From a virus (taxonomy: Duplodnaviria; Caudoviricetes), in IMG/VR virus record IMGVR_UViG_3300010052_000171, positions 1-40,806 of that record: a stretch of DNA of 40,806 nt; one strand, 5' to 3'. How positions within the stretch are numbered: position 1 is the first letter of the stretch; each line of letters starts with the position of its first letter. The notes under the pieces are model-generated. The model was not told the DNA's origin, made no database searches, and was given only the letters and a program-made list of their open reading frames with translations. A program made the position numbers and the translations under genes. This document shows positions 1,818 to 40,806 of the stretch, piece after piece.

Positions 1818-1946
1818 TCACCGCCGCCCTCCCGCCGCGCCGAACAATGCGACTAGGATGAAGGGAACAGTGGCGAGCGCGGCCAGACCAAGCAGCGCGA
1901 TCTGGGCGACGCGCTGCCAGCTGCGGGGTTCGCGGGGGGAGTCCAT
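1818..1946 (-). CDS. 42-aa single-TM protein (not in the ORF track)
   Basis: MDSPREPRSWQRVAQIALLGLAALATVPFILVALFGAAGGRR; TGATG overlap with the stop of the GapR-like gene. Confidence 0.6.
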   Translation of the reverse strand: MDSPREPRSWQRVAQIALLGLAALATVPFILVALFGAAGGRR

Positions 1947-2299
1947 CACCGCATCCCCAGCGAAACGAGATAGGTTTCGAGGAGAACCTCAGCCTCTTCG
2001 CGATGGTGCGATTCCATCCGGCGCAGCTTGAGGATCGTGTTGATCGTCTTCGCATCGAAGCCGGTGGACTTGGCCTCGGTGAGCACGTCCTTGATGTCGT
2101 CGAGGATACCCTGTTTCTCCTCGTGCAGGCGCTCGAGGCGTTCGAGGACCAGGCGCAACTGCTCGGCCGAGGATTCGCCGTTGGTCTTGATCGGATCGGG
2201 AACGACCCGCTTCTTGCGCCCCTTGGTCGTGGCCGCGGCAACGACGATCGGGGCGGGCACATGCCGTGCAACGCCGTCGGCGCCGCGCTGAAGGCGCAT
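1946..2299 (-). CDS. gapR: GapR/DUF2312 family nucleoid-associated protein
   Basis: AEQLRLVLERLERLHEEKQGILDDIKDVLTEAKSTGFDAKTINTILKLRR...EEAEVLLETYLVSLGM matches the DUF2312 signature. Confidence 0.88.
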   Translation of the reverse strand: MRLQRGADGVARHVPAPIVVAAATTKGRKKRVVPDPIKTNGESSAEQLRLVLERLERLHEEKQGILDDIKDVLTEAKSTGFDAKTINTILKLRRMESHHREEAEVLLETYLVSLGMR

Positions 2300-2310
2300 G
2301 GTCAGGCCGC

Positions 2311-2457
2311 TCACAGGATGCCGGCCAGATGAAGGAGGGCGCGCCCCGGCACGAGTGCGAAGGCGACGGCACCGGCCCACAGGTCGAAGCGGTCGAAGCC
2401 GAGCGGCGGCGGCGAGCAATGCTCACATGCGCACGGGCCAAGCGTGGAGGCGCGCAT
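2311..2457 (-). CDS. Small hypothetical protein
   Basis: Start overlaps the upstream stop within the early operon; CACEHC motif and hydrophobic tail. Confidence 0.45.
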   Translation of the reverse strand: MRASTLGPCACEHCSPPPLGFDRFDLWAGAVAFALVPGRALLHLAGIL

Positions 2458-2915: not shown

Positions 2916-5636
2916 TCAGGATCCTTTCTTCTGTTTGTCGGGATTGGGATTCTGGAAGACCCAGCAGTTCACGGTCTTTCCGGTGACCGAGTTGACCGCC
3001 TTGTTCTCGAGGAAGCGGCGGGCCTTCGACGTCTTTAGAAGGCGCTTCAGCTCTTGCTGGGTGCAGTTCCAGCGCAGGCCGTTGGCCGAACAGCGGGTCT
3101 CGAACTGGACCAGGCTGATTGCGTGAACGTCGCTCCCGCGCGCGTGGTCGATCGGGTTGTCGGGCGCGAGCTGGAAGGCGCAGTCCTGGGCGTGGAAGTG
3201 GTCGAACCGCTCCCAGAAGAGGACGACGGTGGCGTGATCGGCCTCGGTAACGCGATGACGCTCAACCAGCATGTCGAGGATCAGGCTGTGTGCGTCGGCG
3301 ACGTCGCGATCGGACAGGTTTGATACGACCAGGCGCATCGCGTCGAGCATAGCGGCGAGCTGGGCGTGGTTCTGGGCGAAGCGATAGTCGCCGCATCCCG
3401 GATGCCGGAGCATCGCGGCCTCGTGCCGGGCGAATGCATCGAAATAGGCGGCGAGGATCTGCTCCTCGCGCCGCACGACATGAACCGCGAACCCCGATAC
3501 GTCGCCGGCGTCGGTGGCCTTCAGCGCATTTGCCGCTGCCTTGCCCTGGGGCGAGAAGCGACCCTTGTCGAAATGCAGGCCCATGATGCGCTCAGTCATC
3601 GCGGGCGAGCCCTCGACGGTGGCGTTCTGGGCAATAACGAGCGCACCACGGAACGGCGGCTCGAACGTCTCCATCCCGCTGTTGGCAATGGCGCGGGTGC
3701 GAACGGCACGGCCGTTATAGGCGGTTTTCAGCTCATCCCATTCGAAGCGCCGGGCATGAGAGGTTTCCTGATTGCGGTCGCCTTCGATCAGCACCACGGG
3801 CAGGTTGCCGACCTGGCCGAGCGTGCGCGCTATGCCGGCACTGGTTGCCTTGGTCGGGTCGAACCCCTCATACCCGCGGCGCGCCAGCAGCTTCCACAGG
3901 AACTCCAGCAGGCCGGTCTTGCCGCTGCCCGGCGCGCCGGTCATCTCAAGGAAGCCGAGGCTTTCCTGTTTGGCGCGAACCTGTTCGGCGAACAGGGAGA
4001 GCACCCAGAAGGCGAGCACGACCAGCCCCTTGGGGCCGTAGGCGGTGACCAGCGGCGCGGTCCATGACAGGTCGAGCTTGTCGGAATCGTAGGCGATGCG
4101 GAGCATCCGCTCCGACGTGCGCAGCTTTACCGATCGCTTGCCGAGGACGAAGTAATCCTCGTCGTTTGGCTCGTAGACGCGGCCCTTGTGCACGGCGATA
4201 TCGCCGAAGATCCATGCCTGATGGTCGATCGAGTAGCCGGTGAACTGGATCGCCTCGACAACCTGAATGTTCGCCCATTGGCGCTGCATCAGCCGCACGA
4301 TCTGGAACTGATTGCCGGTCCACAGGGCGCCAGGTGCGACCGAAGCGAGCCGCTTCATGAAATCCGCGGATCCCGCGCAGGCAGCGCCGGAGAATGTCGC
4401 CTTCACCGTGGCGCGATCCGACGGAAAGTCGACGCGCAGGAAGTATGCGCCTTCCTCAAGGTTCGGGTCGCGCTGGTAATAGAGGGTGCGGAACGTGCAG
4501 TTTGCGACCTCCTCGATCTCAACCGCGCGTTCGGCCGCCTTGTGCCACTGCTGATCGAATGGGAGGGTCTTGAAATACTCCAGCTCGGGGTCGGTGCTTT
4601 CCAGCATCGACGCCAGCTCGCCCTGGATGCGCTCGATCGAGAACGTCGCCCAGAGTTGGCGCCCGCCGAATGTGACGGGGAAATTGGCGAGCTTTTCCCG
4701 CTCGTAGATCAACAGCGCCTTGGCCGTGGCCGTCGGCGCGATGGTGACCTCACCGTTCCAGCGATAGGTGGCGAGATCCTCGGGCGTCAGCTTGTCGCGC
4801 TGCGCCAGGTCGTTCCAATCGAGCTTCTCGCCCTCACCATCGGGGCGGACCTGCGCCGCGCCGGAGCGCCAGCCGTCTTTCGTCGCCTGTTTGTGGAACT
4901 TGCGCGTGTAGTTGACCCCGGCGCGGCCGACATCGAACGCCCAGATCAGGCGCGGCCCGGCAAGGTTCAGCTCGCCGCACACCTTGCGCAGTTCGGCCAG
5001 GAAGTGTTCGGGATAGGCGTTGCAGGTGAGCGACGACACGGCCCGGACGTTGCCGGACTGCACCAGCGCGATCGTGTCGAAGATGCCCTCGGCAATCCAC
5101 AGCTCGTCCGCGAGCGCCAGATCGCGCATGGTGACGCCGGGATAGATCCAGCAATGACCGCGATAGCTGGAGCCGTAGGAGAAGACGGCCTTCTTCTTCC
5201 CGAAGCGTCCAGGCTGATCGATCAGCCGCTGCCAATGCCCGCCGCCGGGCAGGGCAAAGCGCACCGCGGCCGATCCGATGCCCAGATCCTGATCGCGATA
5301 CCATTCCTGCGTATACGCGCCGCGCAGGCCCAAAAGGTTGAAGCCGCGCGCGGATGAGAGATAGGCGTCGGCGGCGGCGTGGGGGTTTTCGGGTGTCTGC
5401 TTGTGCCGCTTCGACCAGTTGTCGAAGATCTCCGGGTACAGCTCCTTGACGTGCTTCTCTTCGCCGCAGCGATTGACGCGGCCGCATTTGATGACCCAGG
5501 GCGCGTCGGCGCGGGCATAGGCCTCACGCTTTCCGCATTTGCCGCACTTCCCCTCCTGCAGCCACGCGCCCTTGTCCTTGAAGCCGTAATCGGCCTTCAG
5601 GCGCTTGAGCACTTCGGTGAGCAAATCGTCGCGCAT
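2916..5636 (-). CDS. Bifunctional DNA primase-helicase (zinc finger, Toprim, P-loop)
   Basis: CGKC...C...C zinc finger, IAEGIFD and AFD Toprim motifs, DWND, Walker A GAPGSGKT. Confidence 0.9.
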   Translation of the reverse strand: MRDDLLTEVLKRLKADYGFKDKGAWLQEGKCGKCGKREAYARADAPWVIKCGRVNRCGEEKHVKELYPEIFDNWSKRHKQTPENPHAAADAYLSSARGFNLLGLRGAYTQEWYRDQDLGIGSAAVRFALPGGGHWQRLIDQPGRFGKKKAVFSYGSSYRGHCWIYPGVTMRDLALADELWIAEGIFDTIALVQSGNVRAVSSLTCNAYPEHFLAELRKVCGELNLAGPRLIWAFDVGRAGVNYTRKFHKQATKDGWRSGAAQVRPDGEGEKLDWNDLAQRDKLTPEDLATYRWNGEVTIAPTATAKALLIYEREKLANFPVTFGGRQLWATFSIERIQGELASMLESTDPELEYFKTLPFDQQWHKAAERAVEIEEVANCTFRTLYYQRDPNLEEGAYFLRVDFPSDRATVKATFSGAACAGSADFMKRLASVAPGALWTGNQFQIVRLMQRQWANIQVVEAIQFTGYSIDHQAWIFGDIAVHKGRVYEPNDEDYFVLGKRSVKLRTSERMLRIAYDSDKLDLSWTAPLVTAYGPKGLVVLAFWVLSLFAEQVRAKQESLGFLEMTGAPGSGKTGLLEFLWKLLARRGYEGFDPTKATSAGIARTLGQVGNLPVVLIEGDRNQETSHARRFEWDELKTAYNGRAVRTRAIANSGMETFEPPFRGALVIAQNATVEGSPAMTERIMGLHFDKGRFSPQGKAAANALKATDAGDVSGFAVHVVRREEQILAAYFDAFARHEAAMLRHPGCGDYRFAQNHAQLAAMLDAMRLVVSNLSDRDVADAHSLILDMLVERHRVTEADHATVVLFWERFDHFHAQDCAFQLAPDNPIDHARGSDVHAISLVQFETRCSANGLRWNCTQQELKRLLKTSKARRFLENKAVNSVTGKTVNCWVFQNPNPDKQKKGS

Positions 5637-5738: not shown

Positions 5739-6062
5739 TCAGCCGCTCAACGGAGCGGCCCGCGTCGGGTCTTCGGCCGCCGGCGGCCGCTCATCATTGG
5801 CGGGCGCGGGCGCGTCGTCGTTCGCCGGCGGCGGCGCCCAATTCCCGACGGGCAGGTGAATGTTGGGGTTCGGCCGCGCGCTGGGCCGCACTGTGCGAAT
5901 GACGCTCAACTGCGCGACGAAGGTGTGGCCGCAATCGACGTCGTCGCAGACCAGGCGCAGCTCGCGCACGATCGGTGTCACCTGCACGCTGTCACGCACG
6001 ATCGATCGCGCGCCGCAATGCGGGCAGTGGATGCCGGGTAGTCTCGGCTTCTTGGCAGTCAT
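5739..6062 (-). CDS. ogr: Ogr/Delta-family late transcription activator
   Basis: IHCPHCG...LVCDDVDCGHTF...PSARPNP. Confidence 0.92.
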   Translation of the reverse strand: MTAKKPRLPGIHCPHCGARSIVRDSVQVTPIVRELRLVCDDVDCGHTFVAQLSVIRTVRPSARPNPNIHLPVGNWAPPPANDDAPAPANDERPPAAEDPTRAAPLSG

Positions 6063-6556
6063 GGGATGGACCCCTCCGCGTTTTCCACCCGTGGCCCCGC
6101 GCCATGGGTATGGAAGTTCGAGAGATGCCGACCGACGACCGCCATCGACGATTGGGCTTCTTCAATTTCGGTTTCGGCGCGATGGACCTCACGAGGCCCG
6201 GCGCCGGGATGTGTGACCGCGAGCGCGGCCGCGATGGCCTCACCGCTTTCCTTCGCTGCCGTTGCGACCGCGACGGTCAGGGCGAGCCGATTGGCGACCC
6301 GTTCACTGACTTCGCGGTCAAGGAGCTGGAGATAGGTGTCAGAGATCGGCGCGCATTCGCCGCCGGCCTCAACGAAGGCCGCGTCCAGTGCGACGCCCTG
6401 GGCGACGGTTGGGTGTGCCTTGGCCAGCGGGTGCGACCATTTGCGCACGAGCCGTTCACTGCGGCCAACGATCGCGGCCATGCGTGGATAACCTAACGTC
6501 CCTGCGATCGTGCTGATCGCCTTTGGGAAGGAGAGGGGCGCGCGAGCGAGTGTCAT
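6059..6556 (-). CDS. CII-like phage regulator
   Basis: N-terminal HTH-like segment (MAAIVGRSERLVRKWS); located between cro and ogr with overlapping start and stop codons. Confidence 0.6.
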   Translation of the reverse strand: MTLARAPLSFPKAISTIAGTLGYPRMAAIVGRSERLVRKWSHPLAKAHPTVAQGVALDAAFVEAGGECAPISDTYLQLLDREVSERVANRLALTVAVATAAKESGEAIAAALAVTHPGAGPREVHRAETEIEEAQSSMAVVGRHLSNFHTHGAGPRVENAEGSIP

Positions 6557-6876
6557 ATGCGCCCCGCTGTTGGGTGCAAAACGGCGCCCCGATCGCACGC
6601 GACGACCGGTGCGCCGTCGGATACGAGGCCACCGGGACAAGAGGAGCCGGTGGCGATGGTGTCGCGAGGGTAGATGTCGGGACGGAGTTGGTGGCGGGAC
6701 ACCCCTGTTGCCGTTTCAACGGCGATCACGTGCTGCGGCGGGAGCGGTTTCCCGCCGGATATCCACTTCCAAACCGCTGCCTGCGTCACTCCACAAACGC
6801 GCGCAAATGCGGCCTGAGAGCCGACATGCTCGATAGCGTGTTTGAGTGCGTCGATAGGGGTGAGGTGCTCGACCAT
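6553..6876 (-). CDS. cro: Cro-like (YdaS family) regulator
   Basis: GSQAAFARVCGVTQAAVWKW...IAVETATGVSRHQLRPDIY. Confidence 0.88.
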   Translation of the reverse strand: MVEHLTPIDALKHAIEHVGSQAAFARVCGVTQAAVWKWISGGKPLPPQHVIAVETATGVSRHQLRPDIYPRDTIATGSSCPGGLVSDGAPVVACDRGAVLHPTAGRI

Positions 6877-6887
6877 GACAATCAGCT

Positions 6888-6948
6888 ACAACCAAAGTTG
6901 TGGATGGTCAACAACCATTCTTCCCTTTGGGGCAACAACCTAAGTTGT
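6888..6948. promoter_or_regulatory. CI/Cro operators
   Basis: Palindromes ACAACCAAAGTTGT (6888-6901) and ACAACCTAAGTTGT (6935-6948), plus a half site ACAACC at 6911, between divergent cro and cI. Confidence 0.8.
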
Positions 6949-6959
6949 AGGTATTACGC

Positions 6960-7454
6960 ATGATAAGGGGCGACCGCATTGCAGCGCGCATCGACGCGAT
7001 CGGCACATCACAGAGCGCGATAGCGAGAGCCCTGGGCATTTCTCAGCAGGCGGTGGGGAAGCTTATCCACGGCGAAACCCGCAATACCTCCAAGTTGGTA
7101 CAGCTTGCGCGTGTGTTGCTGACCACGCCGGCATACTTGGAGGGAGAAGTCGATGATCCCGATGAAGGTTATGTCGCCCCAACACCTCTGCCCGTCCAAC
7201 TGATCACGATGCAGGTTGCGCTACCTAGTGAAGCCGCGTTGACGCGGATGTTCGAAGGGCTGTTGCGGCCGCTCGATCGGGATTTGACCGTGGCCGAGCT
7301 AGCTCGAACTCTCGCTCGGCGGCTGCCAACTGGTCTCGCGCAGCTTCAAGATCTGATGCCCGCACCCGCGACGGCCGAAGCGCGCGAAGCCGGTGCAGAT
7401 CCTCAAGTTCGCGCCACAGATCGTCCCGCGTCGCCGCCAGAACCGCACACATGA
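6960..7454 (+). CDS. cI: CI-like XRE repressor with no S24 peptidase domain
   Basis: SQSAIARALGISQQAVGKLIHGET HTH; divergent from cro. Confidence 0.85.
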   Translation: MIRGDRIAARIDAIGTSQSAIARALGISQQAVGKLIHGETRNTSKLVQLARVLLTTPAYLEGEVDDPDEGYVAPTPLPVQLITMQVALPSEAALTRMFEGLLRPLDRDLTVAELARTLARRLPTGLAQLQDLMPAPATAEAREAGADPQVRATDRPASPPEPHT

Positions 7455-7515
7455 CATCGCACCGGGGGCAGGCCAATTCACAACCAGGCGTGAGCCGGAA
7501 GACGGGTGCGTTCAT
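7225..7515 (-). CDS. Small Cys4 protein, paralog A, antisense to cI (candidate SOS antirepressor)
   Basis: PVFRLTPGCELACPRCDVMCAVLAATRD is homologous to ORFs at 32995 and 37139; LexA box upstream. Confidence 0.75.
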   Translation of the reverse strand: MNAPVFRLTPGCELACPRCDVMCAVLAATRDDLWRELEDLHRLRALRPSRVRASDLEAARDQLAAAEREFELARPRSNPDRAAATALRTSASTRLH

Positions 7516-7536
7516 TCGTTCTCGGTTCGATTCGTT

Positions 7537-7551
7537 GTTCTCTGCACGTTC
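7537..7551. promoter_or_regulatory. Alphaproteobacterial LexA (SOS) box
   Basis: GTTC-TCTGCAC-GTTC fits GTTC-N7-GTTC; further GTTC units at 7518 and 7525. Confidence 0.75.
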
Positions 7552-7593
7552 TCATCGCGGCGCGTTTCCAACATTGGAAGAGGGCTAAGCGGT

Positions 7594-8160
7594 GTGAGCG
7601 GGCCGCCTCCCTCAACCACTCTTTCGAGTACACCGGTGACTCCGTGGCCAGTCGCGCAGTTTCGCGAAGCGCCATTGATGATGTGGTCAACCTCAAACCG
7701 TGTTGTTCACACGATCTCGAGGCAGTATTTCGGCTACCATTATGTGTGGTGCAGTCCGGCCTTTGATGCATCAGCGCTAGGACGTTATTCCCTCAGCTCC
7801 CAGCAGCCACCCTCATCTGACCCGGTATCGATCTACCGGGAGCAGCACGCCGCCGTCGTCCGGCGCGATGAGCACAATGCAAAAGTCGCCAGCCAAAAGG
7901 CGACGCTGAAGGGTGTCGCGCTGAAATTGTCCGCAAGCGGCACTATATCCGAGTATGAGTTTGAGGAGATCGTTACGTTTGTCGACCGGACTACGATCGA
8001 TGACTGGGTGCCGGTGATCTACGCTATCCCCTTTGCGCCGATCGCCGCTAAGGTCCTCGCCGTACCCAGGTCGGAACGCGCGAGCGCCGCCCCCGAGTAT
8101 GTGGTACCCAATCTACTCGACAGCGAGTTTGATGTGATCGAGCCAATGATATGTCGTTGA
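7594..8160 (+). CDS. Accessory hypothetical protein (start uncertain)
   Basis: GTG after a purine-rich stretch; globular-looking sequence HYVWCSP...PPSSDP...EYVV. Confidence 0.7.
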   Translation: MSGPPPSTTLSSTPVTPWPVAQFREAPLMMWSTSNRVVHTISRQYFGYHYVWCSPAFDASALGRYSLSSQQPPSSDPVSIYREQHAAVVRRDEHNAKVASQKATLKGVALKLSASGTISEYEFEEIVTFVDRTTIDDWVPVIYAIPFAPIAAKVLAVPRSERASAAPEYVVPNLLDSEFDVIEPMICR

Positions 8161-9035
8161 GCACCCTGAATCGATTTGAGCCGCCGAAGGCGAAGGCCAT
8201 CCTGGCCGAAGCTATCCTATCGCATGGGTTGGACGTACCGCCGTCGATTCCGCAGAGTTATCCTGAAGAAGTCACCGAACTTATCAATGAGGTTCGGCAT
8301 CGGCTGGAAATTGATGACTCTGACAACTCGTCGAGGACCAAGACTCGTATCACCGAGATACTGTCGCTTGAGGTGACGCGAATTGCGTCTGCTGGGCGAG
8401 ACTTGAAAGAGGTGGCGGAAAATCTAGGGCAGAAGGGGCAGCTTCCCCTTGGTGCTTACAAAATTCATATCGTTGACGGCATCCTTCGTGAAATGAAGGA
8501 AGCCAAAAGCGTTATCGAGAGAGTCATTCGAGAGGCTGACGAGGTTCAGCATATAACCGGAACAGGCCCGCTTTCGAATAGCGCTACGGGCCTAACGCTG
8601 ATTATGAAGTGGGTTCGAACCGAGAAATCAGCATTCTGGTACCTATTGGATGCACAGCGCACAAAGGACACCTTACGTGTTGCGGGCATCTATCGAATTG
8701 ACCCGGAGGCAATTGACCTAACCAATGCTGCGACTCCGTTAGATGTATTGAAGCGGTTCGTAGCAAGATACGGACTGCCATTTCATGTAAAGGGATTGCC
8801 GGGTGATCATTTCTTTCTGGAGGATGTTCGAGTCGATGATCCGCCAAGTGAGGCAACTAGGTCTGTGAACACAAAGGGTGTCAAAAGGTTCGCAAAGTAT
8901 CTAGAAACTGGCTACGAAGTTGGTGTGTCTAAAATGGGCGCGGGCGGGCCGTTCAATTTGCTAAAAGAGTCGCGGATTGTTGCTGCGTACGCGATAAACG
9001 TCTCCAAGTATCTTGAGGACAGGCCTTCGCGGTAA
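8151..9035 (+). CDS. Accessory hypothetical protein
   Basis: 294-aa ORF in AT-richer DNA, overlapping the upstream gene. Confidence 0.75.
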   Translation: MSLSTLNRFEPPKAKAILAEAILSHGLDVPPSIPQSYPEEVTELINEVRHRLEIDDSDNSSRTKTRITEILSLEVTRIASAGRDLKEVAENLGQKGQLPLGAYKIHIVDGILREMKEAKSVIERVIREADEVQHITGTGPLSNSATGLTLIMKWVRTEKSAFWYLLDAQRTKDTLRVAGIYRIDPEAIDLTNAATPLDVLKRFVARYGLPFHVKGLPGDHFFLEDVRVDDPPSEATRSVNTKGVKRFAKYLETGYEVGVSKMGAGGPFNLLKESRIVAAYAINVSKYLEDRPSR

Positions 9036-9155: not shown

Positions 9156-10145
9156 TTAGAGGACCAGGTTCCTCAGGACCTGTAGCGCGTCGAGCAATGG
9201 CTTTACCCAACCAAACTCCCCTGGGTGCTTGCCGAGCAGGAGTTTGAGCGGCTCATAGGCAAGGGCGACTAGTCCGACAACGGCACCACCGCCGACCAGC
9301 GCGCCCGTTCCCTTGTCGAATGCCTGGGTTGTGGCCGATTGGATGCCCGCCAATCGCGCGGAGATCATCCGCGCAATCGATTTGTAGATATTGCTGGCGC
9401 TGCGAAGCAGGCCGAACGAGCTGAGCTGATCGGGTATCGCACCATCGCTCTGCAGCTGCTCTTCGATCGCCTGCTTGAGGTCCGGCCGTACGATTGAATC
9501 GGTCTGTTCCTTGATAATCTCCAGAGCGCGGTGCGCTGCCATTCGGGCGTCGTTTGAAATCTCTTCGACACGATTGCTCTGTTTCAGGAACTTCTCCCAC
9601 CCTTCAAAGCGACTGAGCAGGCGTCGGACGTTGTCCGCGAAGCCGACGATCTCGGCCACGAGCAGCTCGTCCAAGCGTTGACTCAGTGCAGGCAACATCG
9701 TGGTCAGGGTATGAAGATGGCAACCGATCCGAACCGCGCTCGATTGTGTCATGGGCTGCTTCAGGCATTGATGTGTGGCGTTGAGCTTCCGCAAGAAGGT
9801 CTCGCCGATATTGCTTCCATGAAGTCGGATACACAGGCGATCGGCATCGTCGGCGCAGTCGAGCCTGATGGCTTCGGCAACGGGGTCCAAGACCACCGAA
9901 GTATCGTTGCTCAATGTAAGCTGCCCTTCATGCACCTCGGTATCCAGCGGACCGATTTCAGGCTTGAGATCGGCGCGTGAAAGGTTCTTTCGAACTGAGG
10001 TGAGGTCCGGGGGAGGTGAGTCGCTCTTGGGTTCGAACCACATGGACTTGCATTTGTAACAACGAACCTGCCGTCCAGGGGGACGAATCGCGTTGTCCGG
10101 CACAACGTATCGAGTGCTGCAGCTCGGACATTGAAGAATCGTCAT
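9156..10145 (-). CDS. MJ0042/ZitP-type zinc-ribbon protein with a C-terminal hydrophobic segment
   Basis: MTILQCPSCSTRYVVPDNAIRPPGRQVRCYKCKSMWF; GALVGGGAVVGLVALAY. Confidence 0.8.
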   Translation of the reverse strand: MTILQCPSCSTRYVVPDNAIRPPGRQVRCYKCKSMWFEPKSDSPPPDLTSVRKNLSRADLKPEIGPLDTEVHEGQLTLSNDTSVVLDPVAEAIRLDCADDADRLCIRLHGSNIGETFLRKLNATHQCLKQPMTQSSAVRIGCHLHTLTTMLPALSQRLDELLVAEIVGFADNVRRLLSRFEGWEKFLKQSNRVEEISNDARMAAHRALEIIKEQTDSIVRPDLKQAIEEQLQSDGAIPDQLSSFGLLRSASNIYKSIARMISARLAGIQSATTQAFDKGTGALVGGGAVVGLVALAYEPLKLLLGKHPGEFGWVKPLLDALQVLRNLVL

Positions 10146-30851: not shown

Positions 30852-32036
30852 ATGGCTATCGTTGACGCGAAAGACTTTCTCAATTCCAAATTGGCGGCCA
30901 AGGCTCAGATCACCAAAAGAGGGGAGCGTCATCGTAAGGAGAAGTATTGCACTTATCCAACTCCTCCATCACCTGTTGTAGTTTTCGGGGTCGGCCCAGA
31001 TAGAGATGCGGGGCAGGGAGTAGGTCGCCGAAGCTGCGATGAAGTGATTGTTACGGAGGGATATAATTACTCGGCGAGTGCTGCGGTTACCTCAACCCGT
31101 ATCGTAAAAGGTGAGCATCCTGTCTTCGGTGCTATCGAGCCTACCGGAATTCCAGAGAATGTAAGGTCTCAGCGTGTCGAGCTAATCAACGGAAGCAAGA
31201 GCGTTCGTCAGACGTATCAGGAGCAGTTCGCGGTCGCTGCACGCGAGTCTGTCACTAGAACATTAACCCACACTGTGCAGACCTCGACCGCGTTTGGAGC
31301 AAATGCAACTTTTGGTGCTTCTGATGTAGGAAGTAAGCAAATTAGCGTTTCGCATACGATCCAAATCACTAATAGCGAGGTGGTTGCTACTCTCATCGAG
31401 AGAACGGTAACCAGGACAACAACGCAGACCTTCAATATCGATCCTGCTGCTAGCGTATCGATAGAGGCATTTGTCTATGAATCGCCTGCGCGTATCCCGT
31501 TCACCATGAAGGTAATCCTGGATGGTGATCTGGAACAGAACGTGAGCGGCGTTTCGGTGGCGAGCGACCTGCTATCGGAAGACGAGCGTATGTTCGTCAT
31601 CGAAGGCTATGTGGATCTGGTCGCAGCATCGAACTTGTTCATCCGGATCAAGGACATTCCACCCGACGGTGTGCCTGAGAGCGATGAAGCGGTGTTGAAA
31701 GTCATCACAGTCGACGGAGATCTGGTGTCGACGGAAAGCCTCCGCGCGTACATCGCCGACAATTTCGTCGCCGCGCATGAATTGCCCGAGGTGCACATGT
31801 CGCCGCTGATTGGCGATGGTCCGGTAATCGGTCCGCCAGACGGCATCCATTATCAGGTGCTGTATAGCTACCCGCGCTACGAGCCGACACCTGCGTGTGG
31901 GTTCAATGACCTCAGCATTCCGAATCAGGGTGAGTTCAACGTCGAGGTCAGAGAGTACAGCCACTACATCGGCGGCTCCCTTGTCCGGCAGTGGCGTGAC
32001 GAGGTTTCGACCTTCAGCCGATGCCACCTCCCTTAG
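30852..32036 (+). CDS. Putative aerolysin / ETX-MTX2-like beta-pore-forming protein
   Basis: Ser/Thr-rich alternating beta strands flanking an amphipathic hairpin, then FNIDPAASVSI...RIPFTMKVILDG. Confidence 0.65.
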   Translation: MAIVDAKDFLNSKLAAKAQITKRGERHRKEKYCTYPTPPSPVVVFGVGPDRDAGQGVGRRSCDEVIVTEGYNYSASAAVTSTRIVKGEHPVFGAIEPTGIPENVRSQRVELINGSKSVRQTYQEQFAVAARESVTRTLTHTVQTSTAFGANATFGASDVGSKQISVSHTIQITNSEVVATLIERTVTRTTTQTFNIDPAASVSIEAFVYESPARIPFTMKVILDGDLEQNVSGVSVASDLLSEDERMFVIEGYVDLVAASNLFIRIKDIPPDGVPESDEAVLKVITVDGDLVSTESLRAYIADNFVAAHELPEVHMSPLIGDGPVIGPPDGIHYQVLYSYPRYEPTPACGFNDLSIPNQGEFNVEVREYSHYIGGSLVRQWRDEVSTFSRCHLP

Positions 32037-32042
32037 GGGCTC

Positions 32043-32741
32043 TCAGGCGATCAGCCGAACTTCCTGGCGGATCGCGGCGATGGCGGGTTCGTCCGCAGGG
32101 GCGACGCGGCGCTCATCGAACAGGATGTAGAACAGGTCGAAGCCGGAGCTGAGCAGGAACAGCCACAGGTCGCCGCGCCCCATCACCTTGGTGACGTCGG
32201 CGCCCAGCTCGATCGAGCGGAGCTTTGGTTTCGTCATACCGGGGATGTCGAACACGGGGCGTTCCTCCCGCTGTTCGAAACGGCGCACCTCCTCAAGGAA
32301 GCGCCGGCCGCGCTGGGTTTCGCAGATGAACGGTTCCTCAGCCTCGACCTTGGCACGGAGTTGCACGAGGCGGGCCGGATCGTAGAAGCCGTATTTGCGG
32401 ATTGAGGGGAGGACTTCGGTTGTGATCCACCGCTTCATCGCTTTGGCCACTGGCTTGCGGCTGGTCAGCAGCAGGCTGTAGAAGCCGCTTTCGTTGATAA
32501 TGGTAACCGACTGCCGGCCACCAAGGGTGTCCATAATGTGGACACCCTTTTCGTAATCCTCGAGCCGAGAGATTACCTGGCGAGGATTTGCGAGATCGAG
32601 GGATCTGGCCACATCGTCACCGACCCACCACGGTTCGCCGTCTCGCATAATCATACGGATGCGGGCCTGCTCGAAGCTGATATAAGCATTGCTTACACCA
32701 GCTTCGGGATGATCCTTGGTCCGATGGGCGAGCGTGTTCAC
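32043..32741 (-). CDS. BRO-N domain protein (antirepressor-like)
   Basis: FEQARIR...GEPWWVGDDVARSL...INESGFYSLLLTSRKPVAK..KRWITTEVLPSIRKYG. Confidence 0.9.
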   Translation of the reverse strand: MNTLAHRTKDHPEAGVSNAYISFEQARIRMIMRDGEPWWVGDDVARSLDLANPRQVISRLEDYEKGVHIMDTLGGRQSVTIINESGFYSLLLTSRKPVAKAMKRWITTEVLPSIRKYGFYDPARLVQLRAKVEAEEPFICETQRGRRFLEEVRRFEQREERPVFDIPGMTKPKLRSIELGADVTKVMGRGDLWLFLLSSGFDLFYILFDERRVAPADEPAIAAIRQEVRLIA

Positions 32742-32911
32742 TTGGCCAAGCCCTTATCGACCAAACGCCGAATGGCCTCGGGGCGGCTTTCGTCCTCGCT
32801 GCGCGCCGCGTCCAAGCGGGCGAGCTGCTCGTCCTGCATGCGCACGCCGATCATCGTTCCTGCCTTTGGAGCGCGGTTCTTTTTCGTGTAATCACGAATT
32901 GACTTGGTCAT
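32738..32911 (-). CDS. Ribbon-helix-helix regulator 1
   Basis: IGVRMQDEQLARLDA...SRPEAIRRLVDKGL. Confidence 0.85.
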   Translation of the reverse strand: MTKSIRDYTKKNRAPKAGTMIGVRMQDEQLARLDAARSEDESRPEAIRRLVDKGLAK

Positions 32912-32936
32912 AATTTTGGCGATAACACGAAAATCA

Positions 32937-32975
32937 GGCCGGAAGGAAGCGGCAACTTCCAACCGGCCCTAACTC
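32937..32975 (+). ncRNA. Conserved leader hairpin, copy 1
   Basis: GGCCGG-AA-GGAAG-CGGCAA-CTTCC-AA-CCGGCC followed by CTAACTC; covaries with the copy at 37081. Confidence 0.6.
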
Positions 32976-32994
32976 GAACCACGGAGCTTACCCG

Positions 32995-33189
32995 ATGGCC
33001 CAAGCTACAAGCGGCAATAGCACAAATCCGCCGGTGTATCGCGCGACGCCGGCATGCGAACGAAACTGCGCGATGTGCGACATCATGTGCGCGGTAATCG
33101 TTGCGACGCGGGATCAGCTTCGCCGTGATCTGGCCCGCGCGGAGGCGGAGGCGCTGGCGATCATGCCGGGACCGATGCGTCTGAACTGA
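32995..33189 (+). CDS. Small Cys4 protein, paralog B (64 aa)
   Basis: NSTNPPVYRATPACERNCAMCDIMCAV; GGAG upstream. Confidence 0.8.
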   Translation: MAQATSGNSTNPPVYRATPACERNCAMCDIMCAVIVATRDQLRRDLARAEAEALAIMPGPMRLN

Positions 33190-33203: not shown

Positions 33204-33222
33204 TGTAGAGACCGCTTCTACA
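33204..33222. promoter_or_regulatory. Late promoter activator site upstream of P
   Basis: TGTAGAGACCGCTTCTACA. Confidence 0.8.
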
Positions 33223-36143: not shown

Positions 36144-36866
36144 TTATCTTGGAGGGATAAAGCGCAATGATATGTCTGCCATCAGCCTTCTAGCTGCCTT
36201 GAAGGACTCTGGAAGTGCGTCGAATTCGGGCTCAAGATGTTCGGGAGCGACCTTGTACTCACGGGCGTTCGGTCCAATCGCTAGATCAACATTCAGCTGG
36301 GCAACGGTCATGCACCCTCGAATGAGAAATAACTCGCGGCCTCTAAGCGGCCGCCATTCGGCGCGTTCAACCTCTGGGTAGACGCTGAACGCTGCTCTCT
36401 CCCTATCGTTCATGCTCGCGATCATTCCCTTTATCTTATTGTCTTCAAATGATCGCACGTCGGCGTGGTGAGCAAATCTGTTCCGAACACTCTTCATGAG
36501 GCGGATGTCGGCGGCAGTAGTAGGACGAATCCATGACAAAAGTTGCAACAGCATTAGCCGGTCGCTAGCAGTTGCAAGCAGGCCATTGCCTTCATGCACG
36601 GACTTCCATCCCCCTGGCACCTTCAAATTGAAGTGTTGCTCCATGCACGACAGCATTAAATCTTCGGCCAACGCGAAGAGCAGGATTGCAGCGGATCTAT
36701 CTGACTCCCCGACAGCTACCTCGAATACCGCTGTCACTCGCTCAAGCTGCATTTCGTGCTTTGCAGCTGCTTCGCGAGCCTGAGTTACAGCAGCATCATA
36801 GAGTGTCTTAGCTAGTCTCTCGACGCGCTCCTCAGATGCTTCGTTCGTGCCGCCCTCGCTGCTCAT
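36144..36866 (-). CDS. MtlR-like HEPN-fold protein
   Basis: ESDRSAAIL...DIRLMKSVRNRFAH (Rx4H motif). Confidence 0.7.
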   Translation of the reverse strand: MSSEGGTNEASEERVERLAKTLYDAAVTQAREAAAKHEMQLERVTAVFEVAVGESDRSAAILLFALAEDLMLSCMEQHFNLKVPGGWKSVHEGNGLLATASDRLMLLQLLSWIRPTTAADIRLMKSVRNRFAHHADVRSFEDNKIKGMIASMNDRERAAFSVYPEVERAEWRPLRGRELFLIRGCMTVAQLNVDLAIGPNAREYKVAPEHLEPEFDALPESFKAARRLMADISLRFIPPR

Positions 36867-37057
36867 GAGTTGCGGTCATGCTCCAGCCGCTCAGCCAGTA
36901 TCGTGCGGATGGCTACGGACCGACTTAACCCGTGGGATTGAGCCCATACATCCAGCTTCTGACGTAAATCATCCGGCAGTCGCACGGGTACAACCGGAGC
37001 CCTACCTGTCGCTGGTCGGCCTCTTGTTTTGGGTATTACCTTTATTGACCCGCTCAT
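36863..37057 (-). CDS. Ribbon-helix-helix regulator 2 (CopG-like)
   Basis: RGRPATGRAPVVPVRLPDDLRQKLDVWA...SRSVAIRTIL. Confidence 0.85.
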   Translation of the reverse strand: MSGSIKVIPKTRGRPATGRAPVVPVRLPDDLRQKLDVWAQSHGLSRSVAIRTILAERLEHDRNS

Positions 37058-37080
37058 ATTTTGGTGATACCAAAAATTCA

Positions 37081-37119
37081 GCCCGGCGCAAGGCTGCAAC
37101 CTTGCGCCGGGCCTAACTC
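37081..37119 (+). ncRNA. Conserved leader hairpin, copy 2
   Basis: Perfect 13-bp stem GCCCGGCGCAAGG-CTGCAA-CCTTGCGCCGGGC followed by CTAACTC. Confidence 0.6.
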
Positions 37120-37138
37120 AAACCAGGGACAGAACCCC

Positions 37139-37333
37139 ATGGCGCAAGCTGCTCGCACCAATAGCACAAATCCGCCTGTCTATCGCACCTCACCTGCATG
37201 CGAGCGCGGCTGCATACAGTGCGAGGTCGCCTGTGCCGTTGCGACTGCGGTTGTAGTCAAGCTGCGCGACGAACTCGCAATGGCGGAAGTAGCTGCGTTC
37301 TTGCTGAACCCGGGGCCGCAACCATTGCACTGA
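37139..37333 (+). CDS. Small Cys4 protein, paralog C (64 aa)
   Basis: NSTNPPVYRTSPACERGCIQCEVACAV; same length and upstream spacing as paralog B. Confidence 0.8.
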   Translation: MAQAARTNSTNPPVYRTSPACERGCIQCEVACAVATAVVVKLRDELAMAEVAAFLLNPGPQPLH

Positions 37334-37631: not shown

Positions 37632-38171
37632 CTAAATTTTGATTAGACTCCTGGTTATGGCTTTGAAGTGAAAATACTTTAACTTGTCCTCCGGCGATCC
37701 ATTAAATTGGATTGAGGCCTCAATTAACTTGCCGGACTTGTCGTAAATAAGTTTGTATTCTTCGACCAAATAAAGATTTGGAGATGCAGATGATCTGCAA
37801 GACTTTGTGTCGGTGCATTTAGCGACAACTAAATAATCTTTATCTCTTACGGTGACTCTGTGGCTGTATCCATTGAATAGAAACATAGGTGATCGGGCGA
37901 GTCCTTTTAAGGGTATTGCAAGTTTTATGATTCCAATGTCTGAGCATCGAAATTCTATGTTGTAACAATTTTTCACATCGCCGCTGAATTGTGGCATCAG
38001 GTAACCGCCGCTGCCGGAAACGGCCAGGCTTCCGATGCTATACCTTCCGCGATCCAGGGTCATGTATACATTTGATTTTTCATCGAAGTATGCAACGGAT
38101 TTTAATTTTATCTCATCCATGGAGTATAGTTGCTGAAATAGCAAAGCTACCAGGGGAGCGATGTTAATCAT
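37632..38171 (-). CDS. Putative Rhs immunity or partner protein
   Basis: AT-rich ORF 10 nt downstream of rhs, with a hydrophobic N-terminus. Confidence 0.7.
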   Translation of the reverse strand: MINIAPLVALLFQQLYSMDEIKLKSVAYFDEKSNVYMTLDRGRYSIGSLAVSGSGGYLMPQFSGDVKNCYNIEFRCSDIGIIKLAIPLKGLARSPMFLFNGYSHRVTVRDKDYLVVAKCTDTKSCRSSASPNLYLVEEYKLIYDKSGKLIEASIQFNGSPEDKLKYFHFKAITRSLIKI

Positions 38172-38181
38172 GCTACCATCC

Positions 38182-40806
38182 CTATCTGCAAATTCTGGTT
38201 CCTGTGCACTGCACTATCCTCCTTGCCATCTCGTTATATGGATCTTGATGTGCACGTTCCCCTGGTGGGACTGAAAGTCCTCCTAGTCCAAATTTGGATA
38301 TTTCTTCTGCGGATCTGTGAGGGGCTTCGTGAAGAAATTCTCGTTGCCGTCGTTCATTCTCAGCTCTTTGGTAGGCAGGGCTCAATCCCATATTTCCTAT
38401 CGACCCAGCGAATACGTTTATATTCCCCTCATCAGAATTCATGTACCCTCCCCCGATATTGGGGAAGAGATTCGTGGATTTAGTTTCGAGACCCCACAGA
38501 ATATCACTCTTTGTAAATGTAGCTGTTGTTGGGTCGTTGTCGCCAATCTTGACCGTGACAGAGTACTTCCAGCCGCTTGGGAGGGCGAGGGCGGATTCGT
38601 ACGCGGCTTGCAGAGATAGCCGTATTGGCTCGTAGAGTTCCAACTGTTGGGCGTTTAGCGGAACCAAGGTGTGGGACTGCGGATCCTGAATTTGATCAAT
38701 CGTACAAATTGGTACTCCTGTGGCGCTCGAGCATTTGCGGCCGCTATAATCACGATTATTCATCGGATCATTTCCGACATACGCGTAGAGGTTGATGTGA
38801 TCATCATACCCTATCGGATCGGTCTGGAGAAACCGTCCTAGCGTGGGCGAGTAGATCCGGGCTTTGTAATGGTACATGCCAAGCTCAGGGATCCAGGCTT
38901 GGCCGGTATATTGGAACCGTCCGGTATTGGACGTGCCTGAGCCACTAAACCCATTGGGGATACCGTATTCGTCATAACCATTTACCGCGATGCGATTACC
39001 GCCTCCATCGGAGATCGCGACGATCGACCCTTGATGGTCCGCGAACAGATAGCGCGGAGACGTGAGGCTTGAGCCAATGTACTCGACTAGCGGATCGTCC
39101 TGTCCCGCAGTCGGGCCGTGGATATAGCGCTTGGACATCGCGCCGGTCCCGTCATACTCGGCCACCAGCTCGTCACCATCGTACAGGAACTGTGTCGTGC
39201 TCGTTCCCTGCGTCACCTGTACCAGGCGCCCTAAGGGATCATAGCTCAACGTGGCGAGTGCGGGCCCGGCGCCGGCCGTCTCCAACCGGTTCTCAATGTC
39301 GTAGGTGTAGCCCTTCGTCCCGTCCGAGGTCAGATTGCCGTTCGCATCGTAGGTGAAGGAGGCGCTGCCAGCTGCGGTGTACTGGTTCAGCCCATTTCGC
39401 GCATAGCCGCGATCGACATTCGCATAGCCATTGAACCGATACTCGTCATTGTCCCGCGTACGCGAAACGATCTGACGAGCGGGATTATGGCTGAATGATG
39501 TCGTGACATTCGCGGTCGCGTTCTGGAACGTATGTTCGAGAGCCACCAACTGCGACATGCCGTTATAACCGTAGGAGGTTGCTGCCCCCCAGGCTCCCGC
39601 ACTCCACCGCAGCAGGGTCGCGACGTCACCTTCGGCATTATAGGTGGTATAGTTGAGGTTGGTGCCGCCCGACGTGTTGTTGAAGTAGAAGCGATCCAGC
39701 CCGTCCCATGCGGCATTGACGTGCTGGCTGTCGGGATAGGTGATCCGCGTGCGATTGCCGTTGGCGTCATGCTGATAGGTAAGCGTGCGACTGGTCCCGC
39801 TCATCGCCGTCGTGCTTGAAGTCGGCCGCCCGAACCCGTCCCAGCTGCTGAGCACCGCATCCGCGCCTGTCGCGGAGTCGAACCGGGCTGCCGTCTGCAG
39901 GCCGCGCAGATCATAGGCATAATGGACCGGCCGAGCCCCACCACCAGGGTAAGTCTTGCTCGCGACCCGGTTCAGCGCGTCATAGCTGTAGGCGATCGTC
40001 CGCCCGTCACGCTTGCGCAAGCTCGTGCGGTTGCCGTTGGCGTCGTACCCATATTGTTCATAGTCCGCCGCGTTCGCGGTTCCGGCTGTCGTGGATGACG
40101 GGAAGATCCACTGCCTCTGACGATCGAAGCCGTCATAGGTGAACTCGGCGCGGTTGCCGTTGGCGTCGATCACCGTCTTCCGCTTGCCGTTCGGCGTATA
40201 TTCGTAGCGGGCATAGTCGATCTGGACGTCGGTCCCGACCGCTTTCTGCACTTTCAGCAACTGCCCGGCCGCATCATAGAAGTTCCGCGTGATCCGGTCC
40301 GGGCCCGAGCTTCCCGCGGTACCCAGGCTACACGCACTCGCGGGGAGGGAGCCGAACACCGTAGGGTTCATCCGCACCGCGGTACATTCCAAGCGGCCGA
40401 CACTGTCGTAGCTATACTGGGTCACCCACCGGACTGTGCCGGCCGCGCCCTTTGCTATTTGCTCCAGGATCTTCCGCCCCATGAGATCGTAGACGATCTC
40501 CTTCCGCGTGAAGACGGTAAATCCAGACCAAACAGCGGGAGCGACGGCTTCGGACTGCCAGCTCGCCAGTACTCCCGTATCCACGCGAACGAGTCGGCCG
40601 CTTGCGTCGTAGATGTTGCGCACCGCAAGGTGCTCATTGCCGCCCGGACCGTCGGGGTCGGGGGCGATGGTGCCCGTCACCCGTCCTGACGCATCATATC
40701 GGATCGCGCTGGTGAAGGGCGAAGCGTAGGTTTGCGCGAACGTTGGCGCGCTATGCAGCGCCATGATCATGGCCATGGCGCCAGTGCAGATCCGGCTGCA
40801 AATCAT
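38182..40806 (-). CDS. rhs: Rhs/YD-repeat protein with a variable C-terminal domain
   Basis: YD repeats, RFQYTGQ...YKARIYSPTLGRFLQTDPIG...YAYVGNDPMNNRDYSG core, HEAPH in the C-terminal domain. Confidence 0.93.
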   Translation of the reverse strand: MICSRICTGAMAMIMALHSAPTFAQTYASPFTSAIRYDASGRVTGTIAPDPDGPGGNEHLAVRNIYDASGRLVRVDTGVLASWQSEAVAPAVWSGFTVFTRKEIVYDLMGRKILEQIAKGAAGTVRWVTQYSYDSVGRLECTAVRMNPTVFGSLPASACSLGTAGSSGPDRITRNFYDAAGQLLKVQKAVGTDVQIDYARYEYTPNGKRKTVIDANGNRAEFTYDGFDRQRQWIFPSSTTAGTANAADYEQYGYDANGNRTSLRKRDGRTIAYSYDALNRVASKTYPGGGARPVHYAYDLRGLQTAARFDSATGADAVLSSWDGFGRPTSSTTAMSGTSRTLTYQHDANGNRTRITYPDSQHVNAAWDGLDRFYFNNTSGGTNLNYTTYNAEGDVATLLRWSAGAWGAATSYGYNGMSQLVALEHTFQNATANVTTSFSHNPARQIVSRTRDNDEYRFNGYANVDRGYARNGLNQYTAAGSASFTYDANGNLTSDGTKGYTYDIENRLETAGAGPALATLSYDPLGRLVQVTQGTSTTQFLYDGDELVAEYDGTGAMSKRYIHGPTAGQDDPLVEYIGSSLTSPRYLFADHQGSIVAISDGGGNRIAVNGYDEYGIPNGFSGSGTSNTGRFQYTGQAWIPELGMYHYKARIYSPTLGRFLQTDPIGYDDHINLYAYVGNDPMNNRDYSGRKCSSATGVPICTIDQIQDPQSHTLVPLNAQQLELYEPIRLSLQAAYESALALPSGWKYSVTVKIGDNDPTTATFTKSDILWGLETKSTNLFPNIGGGYMNSDEGNINVFAGSIGNMGLSPAYQRAENERRQREFLHEAPHRSAEEISKFGLGGLSVPPGERAHQDPYNEMARRIVQCTGTRICR

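Follow-up and report, generated by a model that had tools for sequence, protein, structure and literature searches.

LexA-controlled antirepressors of non-cleavable phage repressors are known and include Tum, AntC and GfoA/GftA (PMC3121763, PMC9437464, PMC11323111). The Gifsy antirepressors also act on non-cognate repressors, which is a precedent for crosstalk (PMC3121763). In Bacillus phage phi106, which carries an extended arbitrium system (AimR-AimP-AimX-AimC-AimL), the small gene aimX has a LexA site, overlaps aimC by 30 bp in antisense, and acts as a protein (bioRxiv 10.1101/2025.11.23.689978). AimX has been modelled on the C-terminal helical domain of AimC, and stop-codon alleles in phi106 and phiW23 lost function while recoding of the overlap was without effect (bioRxiv 10.1101/2025.11.23.689978). 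In the TF-smORF modules of VP882-like and Aeromonas phages, a transcription factor is counter-oriented to a small cI-inactivating gene (PMC10432266).

The locus described here lies in a window that comprises the whole 40,806-nt viral record IMGVR_UViG_3300010052_000171. This record is rated as a provirus of 100% completeness; it is P2-like and belongs to the Sphingomonas type. A 96-residue reading frame, ORF A (7225-7515, minus strand), is embedded antisense in the 3' end of a cI gene whose product has no peptidase domain. We estimate a probability of roughly 0.7 that ORF A is a LexA-repressed antirepressor, for which the C-terminal domain (CTD) of CI is the predicted binding site.

P2-type capsid, terminase, tail and baseplate genes are present in the window together with genes for a serine recombinase, a primase-replicase and an Ogr protein. 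Relatives of the locus occur in Sphingomonas genomes, which makes a sphingomonad the most likely host. The early operon starts with a cro-like gene (6553-6876, on the same strand as ORF A) and continues through a cII-like gene (6059-6556) and ogr (5739-6062) to the primase-replicase gene (2916-5636). Along the window, the control region thus reads replicase, ogr, cII-like and cro on the minus strand, followed by cI on the plus strand (6960-7454). Two operators of the form ACAAC-N4-GTTGT (6888-6901 and 6935-6948) lie between cro and cI; a third copy at 899-912 is within the serine recombinase gene and may be due to chance. A GapR-like DNA-binding gene (1946-2329, minus strand) also belongs to the early operon and is present in many related prophages too.

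Several other features of the element were noted. The cargo slot after cI holds two overlapping plus-strand genes without a known family (7678-9035) and a minus-strand gene for a zinc-ribbon protein (9156-10145), and its contents differ in every related locus examined. Another cargo gene (30852-32036, plus strand), located between the scaffold and Bro-N genes, encodes Ser/Thr-rich beta-strand runs that by eye recall ETX/MTX2-type pore formers; its product has no Pfam, NCBIfam or PADLOC match, and PADLOC gave 0 matches among 8 cargo proteins. A TGT-N13-ACA inverted repeat ahead of the terminase gene (33204-33222) is close to the Ogr-type site, TGT-N12-ACA. At the right end (37632-40806, minus strand), an RHS-repeat gene and its low-GC neighbour are probably a polymorphic toxin-immunity pair of the host.

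CI is a 164-residue protein with an N-terminal HTH that matches PHROG repressor families. Pfam assigns HTH_3 to residues 9-60 and nothing else, and Peptidase_S24 (PF00717) has no match in the entire provirus or in five of five related viral records. The initial annotation had described CI as an HTH protein without a Ser-Lys peptidase domain and the Cys4 gene as lying opposite the last 230 nt of cI; both descriptions hold, the latter with an overlap at 7225-7454. No SOS route other than ORF A was found in the provirus or in the five related records.

The CTD spans CI residues 78-136 (7191-7367), as defined by the alignment, an AF2 model (pLDDT 82) and the complex model described below. It is predicted to consist of an extended segment followed by two helices, has six invariant hydrophobic residues (L94, F98, L102, L118, A119 and L122), and is likely an oligomerization domain. 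The tail beyond it (7368-7454) evolves without selection in the cI frame (pN/pS 2.8) and is missing in four relatives (L054, L055, L056 and L060), where cI ends directly past the CTD. Searches for the fold of the CTD with Foldseek against the PDB, VIA-align (best Z 4.9) and PDB profiles returned generic helical matches only. The ESM Atlas gave no usable match. An RHH-like fold was suspected from the strand-helix-helix pattern and found no support in the PDB fold and profile searches.

ORF A carries a C12-x3-C16-x2-C19-x3-C23 motif (7447-7482, minus strand) that is likely metal-binding, followed by a hairpin of two helices (residues 21-46 and 53-73 in the AF2 model). The four cysteines are invariant in 50 of 50 aligned rows, and in most loci the start codon is 11 codons ahead of the first of them. 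An intact Cys4 reading frame occurs in the same antisense frame in all 19 viral loci found with the CTD alone and in 29 of the 30 genome loci, which were the top-ranked among 55 matches to the CTD query. The sole exception, L050, is cut at a tRNA-Arg gene such that cI is kept and the ORF A start is lost. The 68 locus records reduce to 47 that are distinct by ORF A sequence, or 46 after removal of L050, which is without ORF A. Synonymous shuffling of cI leaves the antisense frame open in 45% of recodings, so about 21 of these 46 related loci would be expected to have an open frame by this measure (46 seen). Openness by itself is consequently modest evidence, and selection is the stronger argument.

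Ratios of pN/pS were computed on the 211 of 1035 locus pairs that are 68-93% identical. Purifying selection acts on ORF A codons 2-44 (0.26-0.30), both where they lie outside cI (codons 2-20, 0.26) and where they oppose the CI tail (0.30, versus the 2.8 of the cI frame). At the other end, codons 77-96 are selected in the cI frame only (0.28 for cI versus 2.3 for ORF A). Between them is a zone of about 21 codons (7288-7350) in which helix 2 of ORF A (residues 56-76) is antisense to CI helix 111-131, and here both frames have ratios below 1 (0.68 for ORF A and 0.56 for cI). The overlap therefore divides into a zone that belongs to ORF A, a zone that belongs to CI, and a dual-coding zone. For CI Pro123, all 46 loci use CCA or CCC and no other codon, which restricts ORF A to Leu or Trp at the opposing position. 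ORF A is a selected protein-coding gene. Comparison with Pfam, PHROG and NCBIfam assigned it to no family at a score above noise. Foldseek and profile searches against the PDB found generic helical matches only, and the GenBank phage and plasmid collections gave one weak match each, either unannotated or covered by cI.

The LexA box (GTTC-N7-GTTC, GTTCTCTGCACGTTC, 7537-7551) is of the alphaproteobacterial type and sits 21 nt above the ORF A ATG, in agreement with the perfect box that the initial annotation placed about 20 nt upstream of the Cys4 gene. It is the only perfect match in the 40.8 kb window. Shuffled sequences contain 0.95 on average and at least one in 69 of 100 cases, so this match alone means nothing and was not used as evidence. 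The comparison of loci is more informative. A perfect GAAC-N7-GAAC lies 56-86 nt upstream of the first cysteine in 29 of 46 distinct loci (background 0.007 per stretch), with the boxes at distances of 62-71 nt, and one further locus has a box with a single mismatch, for a total of 30 box loci. In a second, family-level set, the perfect box is found in 22 of 27 further loci (background 0.002). Conservation of the box in related prophages, which the initial annotation had proposed as a check, is thus apparent in both sets at backgrounds below 0.01. The spacers vary (23 distinct among 30 aligned boxes), as expected of a site that is read by a protein. The same motif occurs upstream of lexA (4/4) and recA (4/4) in Sphingomonas genomes that carry the cassette, and GTTC-N7-GTTC has been named the alphaproteobacterial LexA motif (PMC8565304), which was also the initial assignment. 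On the ORF A tree, a single supported clade (98/94) contains most of the box loci. Since the box is missing in 16 of the 46 loci, SOS control is not family-wide.

A second site with one mismatch, ATTC-N7-GTTC (7514-7528), reaches the start codon of ORF A; it is not conserved and may be due to chance. A scan for the sigma-70 consensus found no canonical promoter for ORF A. Spacing only places a putative promoter at 7551-7579 on the minus strand, with TTCCAA (7579-7574) and GATGAG (7556-7551) separated by 17 nt. An element of the form TTCC[TA]A is located 19-24 nt above the box in 23 of the 30 box loci, and TTCCTA/TAGGAA occurs in 25 of the 30 and in none of the 16 boxless loci. The element may serve as a -35 sequence, with transcription starting within the box. 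It is also found inverted and as a palindrome, and it may instead bind another regulator. The window has TTTCCTACA above its box (7566-7579), and elements resembling TAGGAA-N2-TTCCTA were observed above the boxes of L078, L080, L081, L084, L086, L091, L099, L100 and L105.

The N-terminal domains of CI form three groups (33, 7 and 6 loci) with no blastp link at E 1e-6. Mapped on the ORF A tree, these HTH types require 12 changes, compared with a shuffled mean of 12.3 (46 columns, with many unresolved forks). Between the window and L004, for example, identity is 88% in the CTD and 87% in ORF A and 18% in the HTH. In these comparisons, ORF A, the CTD and usually the box move together, while three unrelated HTH types exchange. 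Two ACAAC-N4-GTTGT copies are present in all seven loci with an HTH that shares at least 55% identity with that of the window and in 0 of 39 others. The operators thus follow the HTH exactly, while ORF A and the box follow the CTD.

The CTD is present in 49 of 401 Sphingomonas genomes sampled, and ORF A in 27 of 401 genomes sampled at the family level. The family set of 30 loci was reduced to 27 by removal of two duplicates (L076 and L104) and of L102, which has no Cys4 motif. In 24 of these 27, a long ORF resembling an HTH repressor runs antisense to ORF A in the same frame; 15 of the partners match the CTD profile, and the other nine form a diverged group judged by eye, of which one has a PHROG regulator match. 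The remaining loci are two stand-alone short forms and one in which cI has been lost. Members of the diverged group (L095, L097-L099, L101 and L105, and also L096, L100 and L103) have an ORF A and a CTD that have both diverged past the reach of the CTD profile; they keep the overlap frame and mostly the box. Genome G003 carries one typical and one diverged locus, and in L092 ORF A and the box persist beside a decayed cI. P2-like elements carry the cassette, as do elements with Erf/RecE, DnaB or other terminase genes, and L111 has no clear phage genes nearby. The cassette had no match in 400 other alphaproteobacterial genomes sampled. It is real and conserved, and it probably brings about induction in the SOS response.

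ORF A was initially labelled one of several Cys4 paralogues, and the window does contain two stand-alone relatives on the plus strand, B (32995-33189, tblastn E 6e-11) and C (37139-37333, E 0.002). Both have 64 residues, with the Cys4 motif and helix 1 only, and no LexA box. A gene for a small RHH (CopG/Arc-like) protein is divergent from each of them, at 32738-32911 (minus strand; RHH_1 E 0.001, below the Pfam cut-off) and 36863-37057 (minus strand; RHH_1 E 0.00015, 22 bits versus a cut-off of 20.5), and the first is followed by the Bro-N gene (32043-32741). In B, C and the short forms L093 and L094, the Cys4 motif is retained together with helix 1, the principal interface in the complex model, and a small RHH-like gene lies opposite each of the four. 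B retains M22 and V25 and may act as another key, one that does not depend on SOS. A recurrent module of an RHH gene, a short inverted repeat (by eye), and a short Cys4 paralogue with a MAQA leader can be seen at 32738-33189, 36863-37333, L093 and L094. It thus occurs twice in the window, with one copy beside Bro-N just ahead of the terminase gene. Many long and short Cys4 forms end in LH, VH or RH, and in ORF A the codons for this ending lie opposite those for CI P-S-E-A. An internal deletion in the overlapped gene may have given rise to the short forms.

Other regulators are found at boxless loci. In 5 of the 16, a GerE/LuxR-type HTH gene on the opposite strand starts 10-106 nt from the ORF A start, and GerE scores above cut-off in all five (L059 at 1922-2374, L062, L065, L066 and L069). 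These proteins have 148-173 residues and an N-terminal HTH, and no autoinducer-binding domain was detected in them. Their position makes them a possible SOS-independent input. The window itself has no counter-oriented LuxR-type regulator. Five boxless loci (L031, L032, L046, L058 and L070) share another motif, approximately GCCGTAGCCGGCACGGGAGC, just above the ORF A start codon.

A structural model predicts that ORF A contacts the CTD. The input was the CTD (78-136), ORF A residues 1-78 and a Zn ion that was placed by choice, and both alignments were drawn from the same loci. The model has an ipSAE of 0.66, versus 0.00 for the best of three controls. Of 157 solved complexes, 116 attain the ipSAE mark, compared with 2 of 215 mismatched pairs; these figures carry over to the present case only roughly. 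The contacts recur between runs, with an agreement of at least 94%, and the partner pLDDT is 82 or higher. At the core of the interface, V21, M22, V25, L26 and T29 of ORF A are placed on R96, M97, G100, L101, T124, G125 and Q128 of CI. The 25 best contacts lie off the diagonal of shared codons (residue sums 116-173 versus 187), so the shared nucleotides are not their direct explanation, and no similar complex was found in the PDB that would make memory an obvious cause of the model. Binding of ORF A to the CTD is thus supported as a prediction. The invariant residues L94, F98, L102, L118, A119 and L122 are absent from the listed contacts, and the model consequently does not depict ORF A displacing a CI subunit, which is the action modelled for AimX. 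Their absence from the list hints that ORF A could bind the outer face of an intact CI dimer.

The initial annotation read ORF A as an antirepressor released by SOS, and this reading is supported by a box that matches the host lexA/recA motif, by selection on ORF A, by its linkage to the CTD, and by its modelled position on that domain. CI likely holds the prophage silent through the two operators beside cro, which track the HTH type in the locus comparison. The conserved box suggests that host LexA likely binds there and represses a minus-strand promoter whose start is inside it. Upon DNA damage, RecA-driven LexA cleavage, an established pathway, would release ORF A. The N-terminal segment and helix 1 of ORF A would dock on CI residues 90-106 and 121-135, as in the model, and would stop repression by CI. 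Expression of the cro-cII-ogr-replicase operon would follow. The convergent transcript may contribute, although its role is likely secondary.

The predicted complex is silent on the direction of the effect, and a co-repressor would look identical. ORF A could thus be a damper that limits SOS induction, or it could act on host LexA or RecA, as GIL01 gp7, a small phage protein, acts on LexA (PMC11323111) and as the DinI half of Tum would suggest. A list of modelled contacts without the invariant hydrophobic face of the CTD is compatible with either role. We nevertheless consider both unlikely, since a prophage with a non-cleavable CI and no S24 protein needs an inducer, ORF A is the only gene in the window with a perfect box, and LexA-repressed small genes described beside non-cleavable repressors were antirepressors (PMC3121763; bioRxiv 10.1101/2025.11.23.689978).

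If the RNA rather than the protein were the switch, then the transcript released by LexA would silence cI by collision or as antisense RNA and read into cro-cII-ogr-replicase, with the protein as an accessory. The convergent geometry of ORF A and cI would permit this, and neither an intrinsic terminator nor a T4 run was found on the minus strand from the end of ORF A to cro. However, protein-level selection is strong and preserves all four cysteines, the stand-alone paralogues retain the protein without any overlap, and silencing of cI mRNA would on general grounds leave existing CI in place. We rate this reading low mainly because the AimX-AimC stop-codon alleles were inactive and recoding of the overlap changed nothing (bioRxiv 10.1101/2025.11.23.689978).

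With four cysteines in a P2-like phage, ORF A might also serve as a late activator of the Ogr/Delta type or as some other Cys4 transcription factor. This is very improbable given that the cysteine spacing differs, the phage has its own Ogr, and the cassette is also found in elements without P2-like genes nearby. As a paralogue of Ogr or an Ogr-type finger, ORF A was rejected on an hhalign probability of 0.3% against the Ogr of the window, and the Ogr_Delta profile gave no match to it. Hardly credible is a box that controls the plus-strand cargo (7678-9035) with ORF A as an incidental antisense frame of cI, for although LexA boxes can serve divergent promoters and cargo genes at the box loci checked begin 87-181 nt away from the start of ORF A, the cargo is unrelated between loci while the box-to-ORF A distance is fixed, and codons 2-20 of ORF A are under purifying selection outside cI.

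The antirepressor reading has a further implication. Because the target domain and the antirepressor share DNA, recombination in the linker between HTH and CTD can change immunity without separating them, and this may be the purpose of the arrangement. Tentatively, and with more doubt than confidence, we propose a self-contained lock-and-key cassette in which the CTD and its antirepressor occupy the two strands of one 140-250 nt stretch. The HTH, which sets immunity, and the promoter, which may be governed by LexA, LuxR-type, RHH or other regulators, would both be swappable. ORF A, B and C would be master keys, possibly with the Cys4 motif as a metal or redox gate. If so, then one helix each of the CTD and ORF A is coded by the same bases, and immunity and induction cue evolve as separate plug-ins. 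Heteroimmune prophages would share the lock, and ORF A, B and C would therefore induce co-resident prophages.

The cassette offers a testable answer to the question of how the peptidase-less repressors of sphingomonad prophages are switched off. ORF A belongs to no curated family and is usually hidden under an annotated HTH gene. Together with cI it provides a natural, long antisense overlap in which the two products are predicted to bind each other and selection can be measured in either frame. Such a case is relevant to the origin of overlapping genes and to the question of how repressor and inhibitor remain matched as immunity diversifies. One protein that occurs beside a LexA box or beside LuxR-type or RHH neighbours is also a ready series for studies of SOS-independent induction.

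P22 immI, with mnt, arc and ant, has an antirepressor gene beside RHH regulators. B, C, L093 and L094 resemble it in lying beside RHH genes; B and C differ from it in encoding 64-residue Cys4 proteins. The five boxless loci with a counter-oriented LuxR-type gene at the ORF A start resemble TF-smORF modules, which provide a second, SOS-independent induction route in VP882-like and Aeromonas phages (PMC10432266). Unlike in the TF-smORF phages as described, the small gene in these loci is the cI-overlapping ORF A. A literature search, with most subscription journals outside its scope, found no paper on the cassette. Within that scope, neither the Cys4 family nor a 140-248 nt overlap with a dual-selected helix pair was found, nor was free HTH exchange or the use of alternative regulators at an ORF A-type gene.

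Tum of coliphage 186 (also in Fels-2 and PSP3), AntC of N15, and GfoA/GftA/FsoA of Gifsy and Fels-1 share with ORF A, as read here, the combination of LexA control and a non-cleavable repressor (PMC3121763), and coliphage 186 is P2-like, as is the window. The Gifsy antirepressor genes lie far outside the immunity region, whereas ORF A is inside cI (PMC3121763). Tum is fused to or paired with DinI (PMC3121763); ORF A has no DinI part, and the family searches that left it without a Pfam, PHROG or NCBIfam assignment gave no sign of Tum or DinI homology above noise.

The likeness to AimX-AimC is more extensive. In both, a small gene with a LexA site is convergent with the repressor gene and antisense over its 3' end, a cro-like gene is divergent from the repressor, and the actual or candidate antirepressor has been modelled on a C-terminal helical domain of the repressor. 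Some members without the LexA site occur in the AimX family and here. The two also differ. The overlap is 30 bp in phi106 versus 140-248 nt here, although other AimX candidates may overlap longer, and the helix pair selected in both frames is a feature of the present locus. AimX has 29-80 residues, versus about 96 and a Cys4 motif in ORF A, and its hosts belong to another phylum with another LexA motif. No AimR or AimP match was found by Pfam among the 45 window ORFs scanned, and the position that these arbitrium genes would occupy, beyond the ORF A promoter, holds unrelated cargo that differs between loci. Judged by arrangement and by the published description, the locus probably works like AimX-AimC; it is not a member of the arbitrium module. 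Among the systems compared, phi106 AimX is a closer precedent than Tum and the nearest architecture to that of ORF A and cI.
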